This document shows positions 1 through 7,178 of a DNA stretch of 7,178 nucleotides, piece by piece. Where the stretch lies: the IMG/VR virus record IMGVR_UViG_2548876941_000009. One strand, written 5' to 3'. Below the pieces are notes generated by a model. It ran no database searches. It was not told the origin of the DNA and saw only the letters and a list, made by a program, of their open reading frames with translations. Position numbers and translations under genes: made by a program. Source of the DNA: a virus (Duplodnaviria > Heunggongvirae > Uroviricota > Caudoviricetes). Each line of letters begins with the position of its first letter. Position 1 is the stretch's first letter.

Positions 1-354
<354 letters not shown>

Positions 355-429
355 TAAATTCTCCTTTGATTTCAAAGGCTTAGTGTATTTTAATCATTTT
401 TAACCAAGCCTTTGATATATAAGTATTTT

Positions 430-503
430 CTCTGTTAAGCGTGAGCTACGTAAAAAATAATTTTTAGTGGGTATATCTGTTCAGAAGAAATCACGTAGCA
501 CAC
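430..503. repeat. 74-bp intergenic repeat, copy A, between the tape measure stop and the next gene
   Basis: Near-identical (71/74 by eye) to 2607-2680 in direct orientation. Contains imperfect inverted-repeat arms GTGAGCTACGT and ACGTAGCACAC separated by about 40 bp of AT-rich spacer. Confidence 0.85.
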
Positions 504-517
504 GGATATATAAGAAA

Positions 518-2599
518 TCATTCTTCCTCTGGATAGCTTGAACTTAAGAGCATATCCTGCGTGAACTGGTCATTAGCTGATTGATTGAAAGTAAAGAAAG
601 CTGGTTCATCCGGTCTAACAGTTGCTTCACCAGTGATATTAACTGACAAGGGCTTCTTAGCTTCTGCCGTTAAAGCATCTACCTTGCGTGATAGTTCACT
701 AATAGTCATTGCAAGTTGAGCATTGCTATTCACAATATCACTCGTAATAGCTGGTGGAGTTGATTGTGTGTTATTTACGAAGTTATTCATCGGTTCTTGG
801 AAACCAGCAATTTTATCAGCTGCACTATTAAACCAACCTTTCACATCATCCATAGTAAATACTGGCTTAAGTCCAGACTCTTTAGCCAGCTCTGGTAATT
901 TAGCTTGTGCTTCCATTCGTTCAGGTGTAGAAGCTAATCTCTCATAACCTGCATAGATAGCACTACCAGCTAATAGCATATTCATAGGGTTTAGTCTTGA
1001 TGGTTTCCCATTCTTTCTATTCACGTTATCCGCTGTAGTATCAGCGACCTGACCTAATCTTGTGATAGCAGTCATAAGCCCGTAAATACTTCTGGTTACA
1101 CCAACAACTTTATTTACAGCAATAACACCAGCCAAGACTTTTAAACTATTAATCAAGCCAGAACCTAAAGCATCAACAACTTTCTTTTGTTCATCGGTTA
1201 AACCACGATAAGCTAATGTCACCTCATCAAAGAACGCTCTCACCCTGTAACTAATATCAGTCAGGTTATCGATACCATGCGACATATCGCTCATCAAGCC
1301 ACCAAGAGATTCACCAAGACTTTTACCACTCCCACCTAAACTATTCAAAAGCGTTGTCAAGCTTCGTGTAAAATCTTGCAGACCATTTTCAGAACCTCTG
1401 AAGATACTATCAAGCGTGGTATTCCAAGAGTTTTTCAAGTTCCCTAGTTGTGCCTGTGTACTTTCTGAAATAGCTTTCCAGCCACCTTTAGCGGTGATTT
1501 GTTTATTCAGTTCCTGAGTGACCTTCTGAAGAGTATCGGCAGATTTTAAAGCCCCCTTCTTCATGGCATCAAATAGCTCTTGTTCATTCCTTCCGGTTGC
1601 TTTAGCGAATACCTGAACCATACCAGGAACAGCTTCAGCTAATTGCCCCTTAAGCTCTTCAGCCATAATCTGACCCTTACCAGCCATCTGTGATAATGCT
1701 GTTAATGCTCGCTTAATCTCTTCTTCACTTCTCCCCATCAGACGAGAATAGCCAATCATATTTCTAAAAAGTTCTTCAGAACCTTGAATGCCCATAGACC
1801 CTCTAGCTGAAGCACCGAAACCAGCAAACTGTGATTGCAGCTCAGCGATATCTAAACCCGTTGTTTGAGCTAATGACTTTGTGAACTCTTTTACTTGACC
1901 TGCATCTTTATCAAATACGAAATCAATTGAACGTTCAGCACTTGCACGTTGAAGGCCAATTTCCATAATCTTCTGATAACTGGCTAATACAGCCTGAAAG
2001 CTGATAAATGCACCTGCTGCTTTAATTGCTGCTGAAGACAAATTATCAAGACTGCTAGCTGCTCTGTCACCATTAATGCTGGTGGATGTATGACCTCTGG
2101 CTTTAGTGATTGCCTCTCGTACACTTGAATTTAGTTTAGCAAGGGCTTCATTAAACTTGGTGTTATCCATCTGACCAGCTTTACTACTTAATGCGTAAAA
2201 CTGACTCTTAATGTATTTCTCGACAATTGGGTTAAGACCTTTCAGTTTGGTCATATTAGCTGAGTAAGCCGCTGTGATTGCTCTGCTTCCGCTAATTCGT
2301 GGCTGTCTTGGTTGTCTAAGTGGCTTTAAAGTATCCTCAATTTCCGTTTTAATCTTAAACGCTTTAGTGTTTTTAAAACGCTGCTCAATCTTGGAAACAG
2401 TTTTATCGACATTTCTTTCCATGACCTTGAGAGAATCATTTAAAGGCGTAGGATTAACTTTAAAAGCTTTATTTAGTCGTTTTTCAATTCTTGATGCGAT
2501 TTGCATCGTTTGTTTCTCGGCTTTTTCCAAGCCTTTTAAAACTTTCTGAGAGTTAAAACTTAACTCAATCAGGAAGTCATCAACTTTAAACTGTGCCAT
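518..2599 (-). CDS. Phage tail tape measure protein (693 aa)
   Basis: Long ORF with strong SD AGAGGTGA 5 nt upstream of the ATG. Central segment GKGQIMAEELKGQLAEAVPGMVQVFAKATGRNEQELFDAMKKGALKSADTL matches the conserved tape-measure domain signature (GQLxExxPG ... G-rich flank) as I recall it. Coiled-coil-like N-terminus and Gly/Ser/Leu-rich C-terminal half typical of TMPs. Confidence 0.75.
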   Translation of the reverse strand: MAQFKVDDFLIELSFNSQKVLKGLEKAEKQTMQIASRIEKRLNKAFKVNPTPLNDSLKVMERNVDKTVSKIEQRFKNTKAFKIKTEIEDTLKPLRQPRQPRISGSRAITAAYSANMTKLKGLNPIVEKYIKSQFYALSSKAGQMDNTKFNEALAKLNSSVREAITKARGHTSTSINGDRAASSLDNLSSAAIKAAGAFISFQAVLASYQKIMEIGLQRASAERSIDFVFDKDAGQVKEFTKSLAQTTGLDIAELQSQFAGFGASARGSMGIQGSEELFRNMIGYSRLMGRSEEEIKRALTALSQMAGKGQIMAEELKGQLAEAVPGMVQVFAKATGRNEQELFDAMKKGALKSADTLQKVTQELNKQITAKGGWKAISESTQAQLGNLKNSWNTTLDSIFRGSENGLQDFTRSLTTLLNSLGGSGKSLGESLGGLMSDMSHGIDNLTDISYRVRAFFDEVTLAYRGLTDEQKKVVDALGSGLINSLKVLAGVIAVNKVVGVTRSIYGLMTAITRLGQVADTTADNVNRKNGKPSRLNPMNMLLAGSAIYAGYERLASTPERMEAQAKLPELAKESGLKPVFTMDDVKGWFNSAADKIAGFQEPMNNFVNNTQSTPPAITSDIVNSNAQLAMTISELSRKVDALTAEAKKPLSVNITGEATVRPDEPAFFTFNQSANDQFTQDMLLSSSYPEEE

Positions 2600-2606
2600 T
2601 ATTCAC

Positions 2607-2680
2607 CTCTGTTAAGCGTGAGCTACGTAAAAAATAATTTTTGGTGGGTATATCTGTTCAGAAGATTTCACGTAGCACAC
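2607..2680. repeat. 74-bp intergenic repeat, copy B, immediately upstream of the tape measure start codon
   Basis: Direct repeat of 430-503 with 3 mismatches (A/G once, AA/TT once). Ends 8 nt before the tape measure ATG and is preceded by a terminator-like hairpin at 2685-2726. Confidence 0.85.
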
Positions 2681-2684
2681 ATAC

Positions 2685-2726
2685 AAAAAAGGGAGAAACT
2701 ACCGATATCACTCGATAATCTCTCCC
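2685..2726 (-). terminator. Putative intrinsic terminator downstream of the 70-aa gene
   Basis: On the minus strand, stem GGGAGA/UCUCCC (plus 2721-2726 pairing 2691-2696) is followed by a U6 run (plus 2685-2690 are A6). The loop is long (24 nt) but contains an internal UAUC/GAUA pairing. Confidence 0.45.
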
Positions 2727-2749
2727 GTACTTTACCCAACCAATTCTTT

Positions 2750-2962
2750 TTAATGTCTGACAAGATAATGTAGTTCCGTTTCACCTATAATTTGAGCATC
2801 AGAAGGAATACGGTCAATACACCACTTTGGAATCTTGCGTGTTTTTGGTTTGTATGAGGTGATGTAATGACGGTTATTCTTAATTCGTAGCTTTTGTCTA
2901 TTTGGTTGTAGCTGGAGTCTTTCGCAAACAGACCGAATAGTCTCTAAACGTTCTTCAAACAT
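2750..2962 (-). CDS. Hypothetical small basic protein (70 aa)
   Basis: ORF with SD AGAGGTGA 4-5 nt upstream of the ATG, lying 23 nt downstream of the 234-aa gene stop. Lys/Arg-rich, so possibly nucleic-acid binding. No family recognised. Confidence 0.55.
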   Translation of the reverse strand: MFEERLETIRSVCERLQLQPNRQKLRIKNNRHYITSYKPKTRKIPKWCIDRIPSDAQIIGETELHYLVRH

Positions 2963-2985
2963 TAATCACCTCTTTTAATTCATAA

Positions 2986-3690
2986 TCAAACAGCCTTGCT
3001 AAATTCTCGTGGAACACTCAGAAAATCATTGAAGCTGATAATCTGTGCCAACTCTTGACGGTACTCCTTAGCCAGCGCTTGATGGTCACTAATCAGCTTA
3101 GCCAGTCTTGATTTCAGCAAATTAATCTCATTTTCTCTTGCTTTCATCAGTTTCTCTTTGGCAATTTCTTCAAGCTCAGCTTGTGATTTATCAGCAACAA
3201 TTAGAGACAGTCGATGTGGTGCTCTGACAGCTCTTTCTGTACGAACAACTCTTTGACCTTCTGGTAAATCTGCAATCACTTTACCAATCTCTACAGGGTC
3301 ATACCCCCAACCGTCACGGTCTAGTCGAGAGAAATAAGCATAAGGATTGGTTTGAAGCTCCATCAAAATAGCCATTTCGTCAATTTCGTCTTCAAGCTTG
3401 GACTGAATTTTCTCATAAACACTTCTCATTGCTTCTTGAGAGTCTTTAATAGCTTGGAAATATCGGCGTTGTAGCTTCAACTTCAAATCAAGTTCACACC
3501 GTTCGTTCATAGAAAAATCAATTTCAACTCTTGGAATCTCAAGTGGTTCTGGTGGAATATATGGACCTTTATTTACTTCGTGTGATTCCCGCCAGGCTCT
3601 ATCAAAAGATTCACGCAAACTTAATTCGCGAATATCAAGTGCACTTGGTCTGTTCTCAATAATCATTTCATGTTCATCACGGATAGACAT
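2986..3690 (-). CDS. Hypothetical protein (234 aa), charged and predicted helical/coiled-coil
   Basis: ORF with SD AAGAGGTGA 7 nt upstream of the ATG. First gene after the leader region, upstream of the tape measure gene. No family recognised from sequence. Confidence 0.7.
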   Translation of the reverse strand: MSIRDEHEMIIENRPSALDIRELSLRESFDRAWRESHEVNKGPYIPPEPLEIPRVEIDFSMNERCELDLKLKLQRRYFQAIKDSQEAMRSVYEKIQSKLEDEIDEMAILMELQTNPYAYFSRLDRDGWGYDPVEIGKVIADLPEGQRVVRTERAVRAPHRLSLIVADKSQAELEEIAKEKLMKARENEINLLKSRLAKLISDHQALAKEYRQELAQIISFNDFLSVPREFSKAV

Positions 3691-3730
3691 TATTTTTCAC
3701 CTCTTTAGTGTAATTGCTTATTTTCAAATT

Positions 3731-3797
3731 CGTAGAAGCACACTCAGCAATCAGAGGTGAAGAGTCTGACTGAACAAGAACCTGCCAAGTGTGCTTT
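3731..3797. promoter_or_regulatory. Long-spaced inverted repeat upstream of the 234-aa gene, with a degenerate match to the 74-bp repeat arm
   Basis: Perfect 9-bp arms AAGCACACT (3736-3744) and AGTGTGCTT (3788-3796) separated by 43 bp. Plus-strand CGTAGAAGCACAC (3731-3743) resembles the CGTAGCACAC arm of the 74-bp repeats. Confidence 0.3.
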
Positions 3798-3806
3798 TAT
3801 GAATTG

Positions 3807-3841
3807 AAAAAAAGCCCTAAACATAATCTGTGAAGGGCTTT
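3807..3841 (-). terminator. Putative intrinsic terminator
   Basis: On the minus strand, stem AAAGCCCU/AGGGCUUU (plus 3834-3841 pairing 3811-3818) with a 15-nt loop, followed by a U-run (plus A-run 3807-3813). Confidence 0.5.
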
Positions 3842-3905
3842 GGAGGTTTGCTTATAACGTTAACGAAGTTTCAGGAAAACTTTCTTTAAAAGCTCTTAAA
3901 GAAAC

Positions 3906-3926
3906 GCCCTAATCATGAGTTAGGGC
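3906..3926 (-). terminator. Second hairpin (GCCCUAA/UUAGGGC, 7-nt loop), possible weak terminator or RNA structural element
   Basis: Perfect 7-bp stem. On the minus strand it is followed by GUUUCUUUAAGAGCUUUU. Shares the GCCCTAA core with the 3811-3841 hairpin. Confidence 0.3.
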
Positions 3927-4103
3927 AAAGCTGTAAAGGATTCAATAATGAATGAACAAGAGTACTTTTTGATATAGCCTATCTAGTGTGGGCTAAATAG
4001 GCCATGACGAAAAGCATTGCACCTTTCCAACTCAAAACAACTATCATTGATGTAGAACGACTAATAGTTTAATTCAAGGAGAATTGCCCTCCCCATACAT
4101 ACA

Positions 4104-4132
4104 ATTATGTCATGCTCAAGGTTGTTTGTCAA
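4104..4132 (-). promoter_or_regulatory. Sigma70-like promoter on the minus strand
   Basis: Read on the minus strand: TTGACA (plus 4127-4132), 17-bp spacer, CATAAT (plus 4104-4109). Predicted start near plus 4097. Confidence 0.4.
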
Positions 4133-4155
4133 CAACTTTTAACAGATTGGTAACA

Positions 4156-4233
4156 TCAATTATTATTTGCGGAGTTACCAACCAGACAGCCAACAAATAG
4201 CCCTAGCAGCGTCCATAATACAATTAACGTCAT
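4156..4233 (-). CDS. Putative 25-aa hydrophobic peptide (MTLIVLWTLLGLFVGCLVGNSANNN)
   Basis: Its ATG overlaps the TAA stop of the 107-aa gene (TAATG, plus 4231-4235), suggesting translational coupling. Single predicted transmembrane-like segment. Absent from the ORF track because it is below the length cutoff. Confidence 0.35.
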   Translation of the reverse strand: MTLIVLWTLLGLFVGCLVGNSANNN

Positions 4234-4556
4234 TAGTGAATCCTCACAGAATCCGCAACCAAATTATTGTCAGCGTACAAAATTGCTATAGCCGCCTTGA
4301 GATATTGTTCAGGGCTAACGCTGTATTTATTCGTTTCTTCGATAACAAGCCTTTTCATGTTTGAGTCGGTAACGGGAAACATAAAACGTGGGTCACCAGT
4401 TTTAATTCCCTGAATAAAATCTTCAATTACTTCTGAGTTCTCAGCCATTAGCTTTAACAGCCTGTCAAAGTCAATACTAATACCTGCATCAGTGAAGCTT
4501 TGCACCATCATAGCAGTGTCGTCATCAACCATAATTCGCATTGGGTAATTGTTCAT
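4233..4556 (-). CDS. Hypothetical acidic protein (107 aa)
   Basis: ORF with SD GAGGA 8 nt upstream of the ATG. Net acidic, including a DDD run near the N-terminus. No family recognised. Confidence 0.65.
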   Translation of the reverse strand: MNNYPMRIMVDDDTAMMVQSFTDAGISIDFDRLLKLMAENSEVIEDFIQGIKTGDPRFMFPVTDSNMKRLVIEETNKYSVSPEQYLKAAIAILYADNNLVADSVRIH

Positions 4557-4612
4557 TTTTAAATTCCTCTAAAACACATCTTAAATCTGCCAAAATAGCC
4601 ATTCCGAGGCCA

Positions 4613-4681
4613 GTAACCATGCGGGTTACAGAGGGAGTGAGACACCTTAGTAATAGGGTTGCTCATCTTTGAGTCTCACTC
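4613..4681. promoter_or_regulatory. Two intergenic hairpin/inverted-repeat elements between the 128-aa and 107-aa genes
   Basis: GTAACC/GGTTAC stem with 5-nt loop (4613-4629). Perfect 9-bp inverted repeat GAGTGAGAC/GTCTCACTC separated by 29 bp (4635-4681). Confidence 0.35.
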
Positions 4682-4693
4682 ATTCTCACAGGC

Positions 4694-5080
4694 TTACACA
4701 GACGCTTTAATCTTGTAGTATTGACTGCGTGATAAGCCGTATTTCTCAGAAATATAACTTTGTGATTGTCCTTTGGTGATTGCATCAATGATTAAATCTT
4801 TATCATATCTGTTACCATTGGCTTTGTGCTTGTCACCATTTTTAATAGAGTTGAAATTATCAATTAATTTAATGGCGTCTTTAAGGTCGTCTTCGTAAGT
4901 ATAATCAAAGCCTCTGATAAACTCGAAATCACCATTATCTTTTTGTGCTCCAGTCCAGATATCAAATCTTGAGGCTAATTGCTGGTGGGTAAACTTGGGC
5001 TTATTGGTTTGTGTTACGTCTTTCCAGACTTTACCGTCAAATCTTACCAGATGGTCTCGATGCTTATAAAAATCATACAT
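4694..5080 (-). CDS. Putative Mor/C-family phage transcriptional activator (128 aa) with C-terminal helix-turn-helix
   Basis: C-terminal DLIIDAITKGQSQSYISEKYGLSRSQYYKIK resembles the Mor C-terminal HTH region of phage Mu as recalled from memory (DLRIWNDFNGRNVSELTTRYGVTFNTVYKAI). Similar size to Mor (about 129 aa). Start ATG overlaps the upstream gene stop (TAATG). Confidence 0.5.
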   Translation of the reverse strand: MYDFYKHRDHLVRFDGKVWKDVTQTNKPKFTHQQLASRFDIWTGAQKDNGDFEFIRGFDYTYEDDLKDAIKLIDNFNSIKNGDKHKANGNRYDKDLIIDAITKGQSQSYISEKYGLSRSQYYKIKASV

Positions 5081-5358
5081 TAAACCTCCATTGCTAATTT
5101 GTGAATTTTGATACTTAGTAATCTTGCTAAATCCAGTCCAAAGGCATTTAGAGCCTTCAGACTATCAAGGTCATCTTGCTTAATCCTGATATGGTGTCTT
5201 GCTGCCTCTAAACGACTATTAAGCAAATCCTGCTCGTTAATATCACGGTTAATTGCAAGCTTCATCACTGCTGAGTGTGGCAGACCTGTAATGTTTTTGA
5301 TTCGGTTAAGTTCGTCAAAGGCTGTCTTTGTAACTCTGGTTAAAGTGTGCTTAGTCAT
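5080..5358 (-). CDS. Hypothetical protein (92 aa)
   Basis: ORF in the operon. Starts 3 nt after the stop of the 110-aa ORF and is translationally coupled to the downstream 128-aa gene. Confidence 0.6.
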   Translation of the reverse strand: MTKHTLTRVTKTAFDELNRIKNITGLPHSAVMKLAINRDINEQDLLNSRLEAARHHIRIKQDDLDSLKALNAFGLDLARLLSIKIHKLAMEV

Positions 5359-5361
5359 TAT

Positions 5362-5694
5362 TTAAAATCCTTCTGCTTGTGCGTACACGTCAAATTCAAA
5401 GTCTGGCTCACTGGTTGTAAGACTGATATTACCAACGGTAATATGATGCTCGACAATACCAATTAACTTTGCGCACATCACAGCAAGTAATGCGCAATAG
5501 GCATCGCTTGGTAACTCATGGCTTAACCTGGTTGCCTGACGCTGGAGATGGTTTGTCACGGTAGCTGAGTTAATTTCATCAAGATTCTTTAGAAGATAAA
5601 ACAATTTCTTGTTGTATTTTGGGTGCCCCCTCACTTCTGCAAAATCCGATAAGAATGTCGTCAAGCTTGCTCGGTAATTGCTCGTAGCTGTCAA
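5362..5694 (-). CDS. Hypothetical protein (up to 110 aa), start codon uncertain
   Basis: Longest frame begins with TTG at 5694 with no obvious SD, and overlaps the 3' end of the 112-aa ORF by about 116 nt. The frame is needed to fill 5362-5578 in an otherwise tightly packed operon. Confidence 0.45.
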   Translation of the reverse strand: MTATSNYRASLTTFLSDFAEVRGHPKYNKKLFYLLKNLDEINSATVTNHLQRQATRLSHELPSDAYCALLAVMCAKLIGIVEHHITVGNISLTTSEPDFEFDVYAQAEGF

Positions 5695-5917
5695 AGTTAG
5701 CCAGATAATTCTTGATGCTGTTCTTTGTTGTTTTGCGTACTGACATATAACGACTCCTCGGTGTAATTGCCCGAATTACTTCGTCAATGCCTTTGCGTTC
5801 TGCTCTGGTGAACTTAGGTGCTTCGTGGCTGGTGGGGGAGTTTGTGTAAGCGTAGGAATTGTATCTGTTACGTTGTCTCGATGCCTGAAGCATCGCTCTA
5901 AATTCTGCATCTCTCAT
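5579..5917 (-). CDS. Hypothetical basic protein (112 aa), first gene of the operon
   Basis: ATG at 5917 preceded by AAGGA 8-9 nt upstream and by a promoter about 45 nt upstream. Arg/Lys-rich N-terminal half. Confidence 0.6.
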   Translation of the reverse strand: MRDAEFRAMLQASRQRNRYNSYAYTNSPTSHEAPKFTRAERKGIDEVIRAITPRSRYMSVRKTTKNSIKNYLANFDSYEQLPSKLDDILIGFCRSEGAPKIQQEIVLSSKES

Positions 5918-5967
5918 TCATAAGCTAGTCCTTATAATTGTTAATTCTCTGTTAACCAATATATACA

Positions 5968-5996
5968 ATACTAGCATTTTCAAAGGCTAATGTCAA
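5968..5996 (-). promoter_or_regulatory. Sigma70-like promoter for the minus-strand operon
   Basis: Read on the minus strand: TTGACA (plus 5991-5996), 17-bp spacer, TAGTAT (plus 5968-5973). Confidence 0.5.
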
Positions 5997-6002
5997 GCAT
6001 TT

Positions 6003-6032
6003 TTAACAATTTAGTAACATCTGTGGTATAAT
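6003..6032 (+). promoter_or_regulatory. Divergent sigma70-like promoter with extended -10
   Basis: TTAACA (6003-6008), 18-bp spacer, TGgTATAAT (6024-6032). Sits back-to-back with the minus-strand promoter, the two -35 elements 6 bp apart. Confidence 0.55.
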
Positions 6033-6054
6033 GGGTTTATGGGGAGAGTAAAAT

Positions 6055-6399
6055 ATGAGGCGTGGCTATCGAGAATGGCCGCATGGTTATTGCATTGCAC
6101 ACAGACCTCTTCAATCGCTCTGTAACGAGTTAAACGGCCTCTTCAGGTCAACTATAAGGTCAGGTACTTTTTTGTGCCAGAATGCGATTGAGAGCGTCCT
6201 ACAAGGAAAGCTAATGGTAAACCTCCCTGAACTGGGGTCACCTGATGTATGGGCTGGTGGAGGTATTGGACTGATTGCAGGTCTGCTACTCCGCTATTTC
6301 ATCGTCAGAGTGTTTATCGTGTTCAGATTGTTTGGTCGTGAATGGTCATTTGACCTCAAGGACAGGACCCGAACAGACAACCACACAGAACCCCGTTAA
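6055..6399 (+). CDS. Hypothetical protein (114 aa) with one hydrophobic, transmembrane-like segment; could instead be the 5' part of a non-coding transcript
   Basis: ATG at 6055 preceded by GGAG(AG) at about 8 nt and by the strong promoter at 6003-6032. Sequence has the hydrophobic stretch GGGIGLIAGLLLRYFIVRVFIVFRLF but odd composition (Cys/Trp/His/Arg-rich N-terminus). Confidence 0.4.
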   Translation: MRRGYREWPHGYCIAHRPLQSLCNELNGLFRSTIRSGTFLCQNAIESVLQGKLMVNLPELGSPDVWAGGGIGLIAGLLLRYFIVRVFIVFRLFGREWSFDLKDRTRTDNHTEPR

Positions 6400-6490
6400 A
6401 CTCCCTTCAAAACCCCTGTACGAGATGACAGATAGAAGTCTATGTTATAGGGGTATCTTTAGCATTTTGCGCTATCTATTAAAAAATAGC

Positions 6491-6520
6491 TTGACAGAAC
6501 CAGAAAGCTGCATCTATAAA
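6491..6520 (+). promoter_or_regulatory. Sigma70-like promoter
   Basis: TTGACA (6491-6496), 18-bp spacer, TATAAA (6515-6520), preceded by an A-tract (6480-6486). Confidence 0.35.
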
Positions 6521-6526
6521 GCATTC

Positions 6527-6900
6527 ACCTCTCTGACAGTGATTTCTAAAAGTTCTTATTTTTCAATTAGTTGTAATTAGCCAATATAATAGCTGTTCAG
6601 CTTCTTCACAGGGAAACTTCAGAGGCATTCTTAACCGTCCACTAAGTGGGAGAAGAGCGACATCCCAGAAAGGGAAGCTCCTTTCTAATTGGTATTGTTA
6701 CCAATCCCTAAACCGACTTCTTAACCCACCCTTACGTTATTCGTTCACAGTGTCGATAAGTGGTTTTGCCCTCTGTTTCTGTTATCATCGGGCTTACCTT
6801 GTCAGGGCTTTGAAATGTCCCTGTAACTCCCTCTTAACGGGAGAGAAAGAACATAGTGACCCCAAGCGAAGCGCCCCTCTAAAAAGATTTTTTAGCTATT
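6527..6900 (+). ncRNA. Candidate structured non-coding region of unknown class
   Basis: No plausible ORF beyond short peptides. Noticeably GC-richer by eye than the phage genes. Many local hairpins, for example AGAAAGG/CCTTTCT (6668-6687), ATTGGTA/TACCAAT (6689-6706), CCACT/AGTGG (6640-6650), CAGGG/CCCTG (6803-6823), CTCCC/GGGAG (6828-6844). Confidence 0.25.
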
Positions 6901-7081
6901 TTGTTTAAAGGCACATCAAACGATACATTTTGTTGATTTTGGTCAAAGACAAAAGCATTGACAAAATGGTAAGATTGTTCACATGACCTTACTTAACAGA
7001 CTTTTAAGAGCTTTTGAAACAGCCTGTTTAACAAGGTCACTACCTACGGTTCTTCGTTTCCCTTCTTTCTAGGTAGTCATC

Positions 7082-7135
7082 TGTTAAGTATCTTTTCAGA
7101 TATCTCTTTGTTAAGTATCTTTTCAGATATCTCTT
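7082..7135. repeat. Perfect tandem duplication of a 27-bp unit, TGTTAAGTATCTTTTCAGATATCTCTT, with palindromic core AGATATCT
   Basis: Units at 7082-7108 and 7109-7135 are identical. A partial third start, CTGTTAAG, follows at 7143-7150. Confidence 0.8.
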
Positions 7136-7178
7136 ACACTCACTGTTAAGATGTAACACACCTTCGGTATATCGTTAC

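Follow-up and report, generated by a model that had tools for sequence, protein, structure and literature searches.

What are two nearly identical elements doing on either side of a tape measure gene? The question is raised by the DNA considered in this study, a stretch of 7,178 nucleotides (the window) recorded as caudovirus sequence (IMGVR_UViG_2548876941_000009). The elements, each 74 bases long, lie at 430-503 (copy A) and 2607-2680 (copy B), both on the minus strand, which is the coding strand and the one on which all features placed below are read. As an earlier note on this DNA had claimed, they differ at only 3 of 74 positions (A in copy A for G in copy B at 466/2643, and AA for TT at 488-489/2665-2666), and a repeat search of the window returns 430-514 and 2607-2691 as an 85-nt direct repeat of 91% identity. 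The positions given in that note are correct once read on the minus strand. Copy B (2680-2607) lies between an intrinsic terminator (2726-2691) and the ribosome-binding site of the tape measure gene, its 3' end (CAGAG) continuing into the SD GAGGTG that precedes the ATG at 2599. Copy A (503-430) begins 14 nt past the tape measure stop (520-518), 5' of a Dit-like baseplate gene with its ATG at 355.

The setting is not the late region of a phage, as had been supposed, but an Escherichia integrative island of about 11 kb that carries Felix-O1-type tail genes. The island encodes a large serine recombinase, occupies several chromosomal integration sites, and is present in an excised circular form in a metagenome (locus L017). 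Of complete E. coli genomes, about 8% have a member of the family; when one genome per species was scanned with protein anchors, the island turned up in E. albertii alone. No description of a Felix-O1-associated satellite or island was found in the literature searched. The tape measure gene (TMP; 518..2599, 693 aa; PF20155, phrog_4036) is homologous to Felix O1 ORF67 over its first 150 or so nucleotides and its last 30. The Dit-like gene (BP; 5' part at 56..355; PF21821, phrog_3721), truncated in the window by an IS end at 1-55, is 81% identical to Felix O1 ORF68 in its nucleotides. Since TMP and ORF68 overlap in Felix O1 without any spacer, the cassette between them is a gain by the island. 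Between copy A and the BP SD lies a further hairpin (CAAAGGCTTGGT / ACTAAGCCTTTG; 364..423), whose 3' arm could instead pair with the SD (UCAAAGGAG) and which is missing from BP2-type islands.

To see how the element is distributed, 144 copies were gathered from 107 loci, the loci themselves being gathered through cassette copies. The suggestion that the element is a module dedicated to gene starts was borne out: 135 of the 144 copies are sense-oriented and lie 7-81 nt upstream of a TMP or Dit-like start, and wherever downstream sequence is available the canonical copies are always directly upstream of TMP or BP. Of the other nine, seven end at contig edges and two are diverged copies at a third locus. 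The cassette is thus not a dispersed repeat unrelated to gene starts. A copy was found at every readable BP junction, while the TMP-side copy is present in 28 of 67 islands (about 42%) and absent from 39 (58%). Each island has one to three copies, whose gene junctions and orientation are always the same, and an E. coli genome has them at no more than five places. In all the loci fetched (other E. coli matches being set aside), copies lie solely within the island family. BLAST against 50,697 phage records gave chance matches only, and word searches of Felix O1 found neither the box pair nor the tail motif described below.

The terminator seen before copy B (2691..2726) is strong, with a 15-bp stem and T6, and ends the upstream unit of 234-aa and 70-aa genes. 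It is kept in all islands, and in those without a cassette at that place the TMP SD follows directly on the T-run of the terminator. Of the three positions that the cassette occupies, two come right after an intrinsic terminator: IGR1, and the third locus, which lies past the gene for the small recombinase.

The anatomy of the cassette, its pattern of conservation and its placement relative to genes can be read directly from the collected sequences: 55 variants for conservation in general and 36 aligned variants for the columns of boxes and hexamer. The 11-bp arms proposed earlier, GTGAGCTACGT (440-450) and ACGTAGCACAC (493-503), are indeed complementary at 10 of 11 positions around a 42-nt AT-rich spacer, but only the inner 8-9 bp of each arm is conserved across the 55 variants. 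The pattern GCTACGT-N35-48-ACGTAGC occurs twice in the 47-kb locus L001, as compared to no occurrence in 100 shuffles. What is conserved is a pair of inverted 8-bp boxes with an ACGT core (CTACGTGA / TYACGTAG) at fixed spacing, the -10-like hexamer TAnnnT, and a tail of 14 nt. In the 5' box, CTACGTGA (2668..2675 in copy B, 491-498 in copy A), CTAC and the last A are invariant and the intervening GTG is at least 90% conserved over the 36 aligned variants. The 3' box, TTACGTAG (2623..2630 and 446-453, respectively), is its inverted repeat, with T or C as second base; 45 bp separate its ACGT center from that of the 5' box. The tail, CTCACGCTTAACAGAG (2607..2622 and 430-445), holds a TAA that is invariant and in frame. 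It also has the word TTAACAGAG, found again at 5947-5955 (minus strand) within the 5' UTR of the leftward operon of the island.

The hexamer, TATTTT in the window (2631..2636 in copy B, 454-459 in copy A), had been overlooked in the earlier note. Its first, second and sixth bases (T46, A47 and T51) are invariant at fixed columns across the 36 aligned variants and five divergent spacer types, while the inner three vary (TATTTT, TAGAAT, TAGATT, TAATTT or TAACTT, according to spacer type), and TAnnnT is kept also in the diverged third-locus copy. With A second and T sixth, it has the bases expected of a sigma-70-type -10. The earlier note was right that there is no canonical -35: a consensus scan reports no sigma-70 promoter within the cassette. 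By inspection, spacer types a and d offer TGAACA (4/6) at an 18-bp spacing and types b and c nothing, and the TG of an extended -10 (at -15/-14) is absent from the cassette.

Spacers are mosaics of exchangeable halves (a/b/c/d x i-v), yet divergent as they are, the cassette measures 73-75 nt in 52 of 55 variants. Three TMP-type variants and several third-locus copies have a 27-nt insertion directly 3' of the 5' box. The near-identity that drew attention to the repeats holds in the window but not in most islands, where the two copies have only boxes and architecture in common; the same spacer type is found in both copies at 6 of 30 two-copy loci. The boxes are better conserved than the flanking coding DNA, and what is kept is their sequence, invariant or nearly so, beyond the mere ability to pair. 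The word CTACGTR is found nowhere else in the window and is not enriched in Felix O1.

I tentatively consider this conserved cassette to be, most likely, a factor-dependent and switchable internal promoter/operator, though my confidence in that function stops short of even. The reading draws on the sense placement upstream of starts, the terminators, TAnnnT, the fixed geometry, the constraint on the boxes and the gain relative to the phage, and, by analogy, on the precedent of the satellite P4, whose late promoters before morphogenesis genes lack a -35 and are activated by a helper. The cassette would act at the level of DNA, as a -10-like TAnnnT without a usable -35, set between two ACGT-core boxes. 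If transcription begins within ACGTA, as predicted, these would fall at about -47 and -2. The boxes may bind a putative dimeric regulator, either encoded by the island or supplied by an infecting Felix-O1-like phage. From its place past a strong terminator or past the TMP stop, the cassette would start transcription anew and would provide conditional expression of its own to the Dit-like gene in every island and to TMP in about 42% of them. That the cassette drives transcription, where the start lies, that a regulator binds (and which one) and that a helper is needed are all things that I infer from this arrangement. Several observations weigh on the other side. TAnnnT is common in AT-rich DNA, and the opposite strand has such hexamers too; the sigma-70 scan was negative for the cassette; the 27-nt insertion alters the spacing of the boxes and yet persists; TMP in 58% of the islands must be expressed, if at all, without a cassette; and Felix O1 has no related motif.

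A close precedent is provided by the late promoters of phage P2 and satellite P4 (Psid and PLL, and P2 PP, PO, PV and PF), which lack a -35, are activated by Ogr and delta in a helper-dependent manner, and carry a dyad, TGT-N12-ACA, that is centered near -55, all of it upstream of the promoter. The island resembles them in having a repeated -35-less module with a dyad and a -10-like hexamer before morphogenesis genes, within a small integrative element relying on another phage (in its case putatively), with silence expected until a trans-activator arrives. It departs from them in its boxes (CTACGTGA / TYACGTAG), which are 45 bp apart and straddle the -10, in having no zinc-finger protein like Ogr or delta (the 70-aa protein has 2 Cys), and in its putative helper, a virulent Felix-O1-type myovirus rather than the temperate P2. 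An Ogr- or delta-dependent promoter proper was rejected, as both the sequence and the geometry of the dyad differ and the island has no Ogr-like protein. Other assignments fared no better. A promoter 3' of the cassette with TTTACG as its -35 works weakly in one context and fails upstream of TMP. Compared by eye with the cassette, neither the sites of sigma-54, sigma-32, sigma-E, sigma-28 and T4 late transcription (TATAAATA) nor those of the MotA box, CRP, TyrR, TorR, CpxR, PurR and MetJ fit all spacer types.

If there is a regulator, it is probably not the 128-aa HTH protein put forward earlier as a binder, whose gene is missing from four islands (L003, L004, L006 and L010) with identical boxes. 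The 184-, 92-, 107-, 234- and 70-aa proteins gave no informative match in sequence searches of Pfam, PHROGs, PADLOC, NCBIfam and PDB, and tblastn found no counterpart of any of them in Felix O1. AlphaFold models built from single sequences were unreliable for the 92-aa (pTM 0.44) and 70-aa (pTM 0.37) proteins and were therefore left out of fold searches. No candidate regulator of the cassette was found among the island proteins searched, which speaks against the promoter reading.

The main rival, possible but on balance doubtful, is that the cassette works in RNA or translation, a hairpin between the boxes and a micro-ORF bridging it together setting mRNA stability or the translational coupling of the downstream tail gene. 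On a read-through polycistronic mRNA the boxes would form a stem of 9-13 bp with a loop of about 35-40 nt, and a short ORF would run through the hairpin and end at the invariant TAA, just 5' of the next ribosome-binding site, a device that would replace the direct ATGA/TAATG start-stop coupling of Felix O1. In copy A the micro-ORF (435..521; 28 codons, MISYISVCYVISSEQIYPLKIIFYVAHA and stop) begins at the ancestral, SD-equipped start of the baseplate gene, whose ATG and the TMP stop overlap (GAGGAAGAATGA); in copy B the corresponding frame opens with a GTG at 2680 and closes with a TAA at 2612. On the sense strand, frame 0 stays open through all 55 variants as well as the third-locus copy, always with the TAA at its end, which points to a role in RNA or translation and against a promoter. 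The other two frames meet stops within the boxes (TGA and TAG), so that one frame alone could ever be open. Variable columns show no bias by codon position (11, 12 and 10 at positions 1, 2 and 3), and no conservation of the peptide is apparent across the 55 variants. Starts and SDs of the micro-ORF are heterogeneous, many contexts having no SD or no ATG. The ORF stop lies just 12-25 nt from the following ATG in the BP2 and TMP contexts, but about 80 nt from it in the BP1 context.

The hairpin itself is predicted at -17 to -20 kcal/mol (MFE), with sense-strand z-scores down to -3.3. Its single variable stem pair switches between G-U and G-C (19 vs 15), and the 27-nt insertion falls in the loop and in frame. 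Against this, there is no covariation: paired cells amount to 89.7% as compared to 89.3% in shuffles, the covariation score is 0.057 as compared to 0.051, and one pair has changed on both sides. Outer stem pairs are broken without compensation in 9-12 of 36 rows, the boxes are kept as sequence, and a scan of the window against Rfam gave no match at E<=1. Copy B and the third-locus copy, moreover, come after terminators and have no upstream ORF from which to couple. Intercistronic hairpins and upstream ORFs of phage operons, such as the RNase III sites of T7, mediate translational coupling or mRNA processing, and the cassette is like them as a conserved hairpin-forming repeat between cistrons with a micro-ORF stop near the next RBS. 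It is unlike them in its lack of covariation, in its copies that follow terminators with no upstream cistron, and in its stem of 9-13 bp, RNase III substrates being typically about 20 bp.

It is improbable that the cassette serves primarily for recombination, in the manner of the T4-type PeSL, its copies promoting exchange, duplication and loss of modules with regulation secondary. Signs of exchange between copies do exist. Presence of the cassette upstream of TMP varies among islands, spacer halves are interchangeable, the identical 27-nt insertion occurs in TMP-type and third-locus copies, and near-identical copies in 6 of 30 two-copy islands, the window included, suggest gene conversion. 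The composite of terminator and cassette at two positions also recalls the composite terminator/promoter motifs of PeSL (PMC4122927). The earlier proposal of a recombination boundary bracketing TMP nevertheless finds no support, because the TMP-side copy is so often absent and TMP is never deleted or swapped between copies: among 89 baseplate-side copies there was no TMP-deleted or TMP-replaced product. Mosaic breaks fall inside TMP and inside the cassette rather than at the cassette's edges, across which homology among islands is unbroken. The presence of one to three copies at fixed junctions in one orientation also speaks against this reading, and recombination alone leaves the strong purifying selection on boxes and TAnnnT unexplained.

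PeSLs have a near-consensus -35/N17/-10, number in the tens within hyperplastic regions, and flank ORFans that differ between close relatives (PMC2839356, PMC4122927). The cassette shares with PeSL and PmSL the character of a short conserved regulatory module, directly repeated around genes, associated with a stem-loop or terminator and showing signs of copy-to-copy recombination, and with PmSL the pairing of a -10 with a non-sigma-70 upstream box. It differs from PeSL in lacking a -35, in its few copies at fixed junctions, and in that the bracketed TMP is never exchanged or lost. Membership among the PeSLs was rejected for want of a -35 and because a terminator precedes the cassette at only two of three positions.

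Very improbable is a non-transcriptional role, in which a protein of the helper or the island would bind the cassette in replication, packaging or the control of recombination directionality, or an inert relic of a past insertion. The tail word CTTAACAGA is enriched in two non-coding regions, one in the island (window 6990-7150) and one of 1.6 kb in Felix O1, and the whole TMP-Dit spacer is an insertion between 7-8-bp duplications of ATGATTT(A). Against this, the boxes (CTACGTR) have no such enrichment; the strict tie to gene starts and orientation better fits control of expression; and a relic would not hold boxes more conserved than the neighboring genes.

The remaining candidates can be dismissed briefly: a MITE, since despite the inverted arms a comparison of filled with empty sites upstream of TMP reveals no target duplication, and the ATGATTT(A) duplication brackets the entire 163-bp spacer and not the cassette; an intrinsic terminator, since the scan finds 2726-2691 and none inside the cassette, whose 3' arm is followed by CTCACGCTTAAC; and an inversion or resolution site of the small serine recombinase, since loci L050 and L029, with the recombinase module replaced, are collinear with L001 and show no cassette-bounded inversion. 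By inspection the cassette is presumably also unlike hix/gix or res half-sites.

A broader proposal, unlikely but conceivable, is that the promoter/operator is a helper-sensing switch of undescribed Escherichia satellites or anti-phage islands that parasitize virulent Felix-O1-type myoviruses. On infection, a factor of the phage or the island would bind the boxes and fire the cassette, and the island tape measure and Dit, whose ends match those of the helper, would redirect or poison helper tail assembly. Temporal control of transcription in Felix O1 is reported not to be known (Whichard et al., 2010; PMC3185647). The PLE of Vibrio cholerae is likewise a small island in the chromosome, equipped with a large serine recombinase, linked to a virulent myovirus (for the present island putatively) and excised as a circle, and differs from the present island in the latter's homologues of the phage's tape measure and Dit and its short non-coding motifs common with Felix O1.

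The cassette is also a marker for a family of islands of about 11 kb with phage tail-assembly genes. If it is a helper-responsive promoter, its 74 bp would offer a handle on how an island detects a strictly virulent Felix-O1-type phage, and the boxes could be used as bait for the regulator. The islands themselves may serve as satellites, or as a defense that interferes with tail assembly, against phages used in typing and therapy.

By repeat search, 430-514 and 2607-2691 form the window's largest direct repeat, and the near-identical 74-nt copies that the earlier note described there are real, with 3 mismatches within its 74 nt. Since the long ORFs near the repeat all lie on the minus strand, the sequence to read for the element, here called the cassette, is the reverse complement, GTGTGCTACGTGAAATCTTCTGAACAGATATACCCACCAAAAATTATTTTTTACGTAGCTCACGCTTAACAGAG. 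The positions claimed for both copies hold. Copy B (2680-2607, minus strand) follows a terminator with a 15-bp stem at 2726-2691 and precedes the tape measure (TMP) gene, and its 3' bases merge into the SD, GAGGTG, of that 693-aa gene (ATG at 2599). Copy A (503-430, minus strand) begins 14 nt past the TMP stop, upstream of the SD of the next gene; on its 3' side come a hairpin (423-364), then the SD, and then the ATG of that gene at 355. The 3' arm of this minus-strand hairpin, GCCUUUGA, has two alternative pairing partners, the 5' arm and the SD region, UCAAAGGAG, and could serve as an alternative-structure translational switch. It has no counterpart in islands carrying the other type of this gene.

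The supposed phage late-gene setting has to be given up, as the window lies outside any phage genome and matches E. coli chromosomes, the best at 99.6% identity across window 56-7108. Strain 21KM1392 carries the region as an insert of ~11 kb in the tonB/yciI interval, with a 506-aa large serine recombinase at its boundary, and on L001, a 47-kb E. coli locus, the island occupies 17973-29432. Related islands are inserted at yegS/yegR, yecD/yecE and wrbA; the island occupies at least four sites on E. coli chromosomes and also occurs in E. albertii. An 11,233-bp metagenome contig (L017) has a 55-bp terminal overlap and joins both island ends precisely, with a 2-bp overlap, and is thus the excised circle of the island. 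The copy of the island in the window is decaying: an insertion-sequence end (window 1-55, present in thousands of records, with IS21/IS100- and IS66-like matches) truncates the gene after the TMP gene past ~100 codons, and a 184-aa gene, the first of the leftward operon, which L001 has whole at 25307-25861, is broken into overlapping ORFs of 112 and 110 aa (window 5579-5694). Island cargo is variable (a 221-aa protein, a Dam-like methylase, or HNH endonucleases), as is the right-hand module (L001 27732-28283, as against 9740-10309 and 9402-9926 in two other compared loci, L050 and L062), which holds either an AP2/ERF-like gene or a small serine recombinase/invertase with two unrelated alleles in either orientation.

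The TMP matches PF20155 and phrog_4036, and the gene after it is Dit-like (PF21821, phrog_3721), with 81% nucleotide identity to ORF68 of phage Felix O1; the likeness of the TMP gene to Felix O1 ORF67 is limited to the first ~150 nt and the last 30 nt. The two genes, which overlap in Felix O1 (GAGGAAGAATAATG), are set apart in the island by a 163-bp spacer that contains the cassette and has at each end one copy of a duplicated ATGATTT, the first bases of the baseplate (Dit-like) gene. Beyond these Felix-O1-type genes the island has no recognisable phage genes, and for its remaining proteins neither a Felix O1 homologue nor a recognisable family was found.

The 91-nt cassette region occurs in 446 of 5,426 complete E. 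coli genomes, always chromosomal and at 1-5 places per genome, and has no real match among 50,697 phage records. The comparison set consisted of ten E. coli loci, E. albertii (the sole match in a scan of one genome per species), 95 metagenome stretches and 13 IMG/VR stretches, the last fetched after the nhmmer search and thus outside its census. Searching with the nhmmer profile gave 144 copies, spread over 107 loci. The earlier note had proposed mapping copies against gene starts: 46 of the 144 have a TMP start 7-17 nt downstream on the same strand, and 89 precede the start of a Dit-like gene, at ~73-77 nt for one gene type and 10-20 nt for the other. The rest are truncated by contig ends (7) or represent a diverged third copy (2), which in some islands lies after the terminator of the small serine recombinase gene, on the other strand, with boxes CCTACGC...CGTAGG. 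The baseplate-side copy is present in all islands with a readable junction, the TMP-side copy in 28 of 67 assessable islands; where the latter is missing, the terminator T-run directly adjoins the SD or a deletion remnant, AACACTTAAGAGGTG, stays.

Length is 73-75 nt in all but three of the 55 distinct variants; these three have a 27-nt hairpin insertion just 3' of the 5' box. In an alignment of 36 variants the parts that are invariant or nearly so are the 5' box CTACGTGA, the motif ATACC(C/A)AC, an A-tract, T-A-n-n-n-T-T, the 3' box (T/C)ACGTAG, of which ACGTA itself is invariant, and the tail CTCACGCTTAA(C)AGAG. The remaining spacer comprises four 5' types and five 3' types, freely combined; the two copies of a locus usually differ in type, agreeing in 6 of 30 two-copy loci, the window included. 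The boxes are more conserved than the neighbouring TMP and Dit coding sequence. The 27-nt hairpin, TGATTCGGATAAGAATTATCCTCA, has the same insertion point in TMP-type and third-locus cassettes, and a hairpin of ~30 nt, TATGAG(G)ATAG-NNNN-CTATC(C)GAA..TAT, recurs before and/or after the terminator in intergenic regions (the two modules are seen in L005 6880-7086, L007 4703-4845, the cassette variants of L034, L067 and L101, and L046 and L061).

I tentatively favour, at somewhat below an even chance, the view that the cassette is a factor-dependent promoter/operator, because of its -10 signature, its fixed geometry, the conservation of the boxes at the level of sequence and its position after terminators. 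A consensus scan of the window found no sigma-70 promoter inside the cassette, and strong ones elsewhere (minus strand 4132-4104 and 5996-5968; plus strand 6003-6032). The earlier remark that no canonical -35/-10 is obvious in the element stands for the -35 but passes over a -10-like hexamer: the invariant TAnnnT, with its variable inner bases, is the signature of a -10 hexamer, and it sits 2 bp before the 3' box. From its position, transcription would start in ACGTA, giving a predicted leader of 20-25 nt with the SD inside and setting the 5' box at about -47 and the 3' box at about -2. Lacking a -35, the cassette would need a factor for activity. The 128-aa HTH protein once suggested as a binder finds no support in that role, its gene being replaced by a small ORF and an HNH gene in islands with identical boxes.

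The main rival, to which I give a somewhat lower probability, is that an RNA hairpin and a micro-ORF bridging it modulate translation or stability; the two readings are not mutually exclusive. What keeps this rival in play is an open frame across the cassette and the tolerance of an insertion in the loop. The sense strand folds as the expected hairpin (z-scores -1.1 to -3.3). By pair counts, 89.7% of cells are paired, as compared with 89.3% after the columns are shuffled; a single pair is changed on both sides, and Rfam has no match for the cassette. As for the 11-bp inverted arms, the inner 8 bp never vary and so say nothing about pairing; they are conserved as sequence. The outer pairs break uncompensated in one quarter to one third of rows. 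From the 5' box onward, 55 of 55 variants keep one sense frame open as far as an invariant TAA (in GCTTAA). The 27-nt insertion leaves that frame unshifted, and in the third-locus copy it is likewise open; in copy A its start is the ancestral ATG of the baseplate gene, which comes with an SD and overlaps the TMP stop. The probability of such a frame by chance is roughly estimated at 0.001-0.01, varying with the independence of the spacer types. A real coding role is argued against by TGA and TAG within the boxes, which close the other two frames, by heterogeneous start signals and by an even spread of variable sites across codon positions (11, 12, 10), so that any selection would be for ribosome passage and not for a peptide.

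A purely recombinational role is distinctly improbable. As for the copies as a boundary around the TMP gene, none of the 89 baseplate-side copies is a TMP-less recombinant, the islands are collinear, and mosaic breakpoints fall within the TMP gene and within the cassette. Some other non-transcriptional role seems slightly less probable again.

Several other non-coding features deserve mention. A region of ~1.3 kb in the island (window 6990-7150; L001 26345-27730) is dense in the words CTTAACAG, CTAACAAG and TTAACAA, as is a 1.6-kb region of Felix O1 (L012 12306-13927), where 8 of 21 exact occurrences of CTTAACAG fall in 12845-13688. A 20-mer, TAGTCATCTGTTAAGTATCT, matches between the two regions at 95% identity, and they also have CCCCCTTTGCAAAA in common; both exceed all 30 shuffles. 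This may be a common cis-site for a phage protein, perhaps an origin or packaging site. The word TTAACAGAG is present in both cassette tails and at 5947-5955 (minus strand), within the leftward operon's 5' UTR. A unit of ~27 nt, TCTGTTAAGTATCTTTTCAGATATCTCT, with the word CTGTTAAG, is tandemly duplicated at window 7064-7135 and single-copy in L001. Finally, a 540-nt gap (3691-4232, minus strand) contains the near-consensus sigma-70 promoter at 4132-4104 (TTGACA, 17 bp, CATAAT with TG), a terminator ~170-190 nt downstream (3927-3905) and, after it and just before a 234-aa gene, an inverted repeat with 29-nt arms (3811-3721). The layout resembles a leader, attenuator or small RNA, suggesting that the operon ending at the TMP terminator is controlled by terminator read-through.

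No description of the cassette or the island was found in the searchable literature, and temporal control of transcription in Felix O1 is given as unknown in its genome paper (PMC3185647). The known systems that the cassette would most resemble in working are the late promoters of satellite P4, which a helper activates, and, in T4-type phages, the PeSL/PmSL cassettes (PMC4122927); it fails the defining features of each and so is a member of neither. It is a selected cis-element dedicated to both tail genes of an island family that may be an undescribed satellite or tail-interference element.
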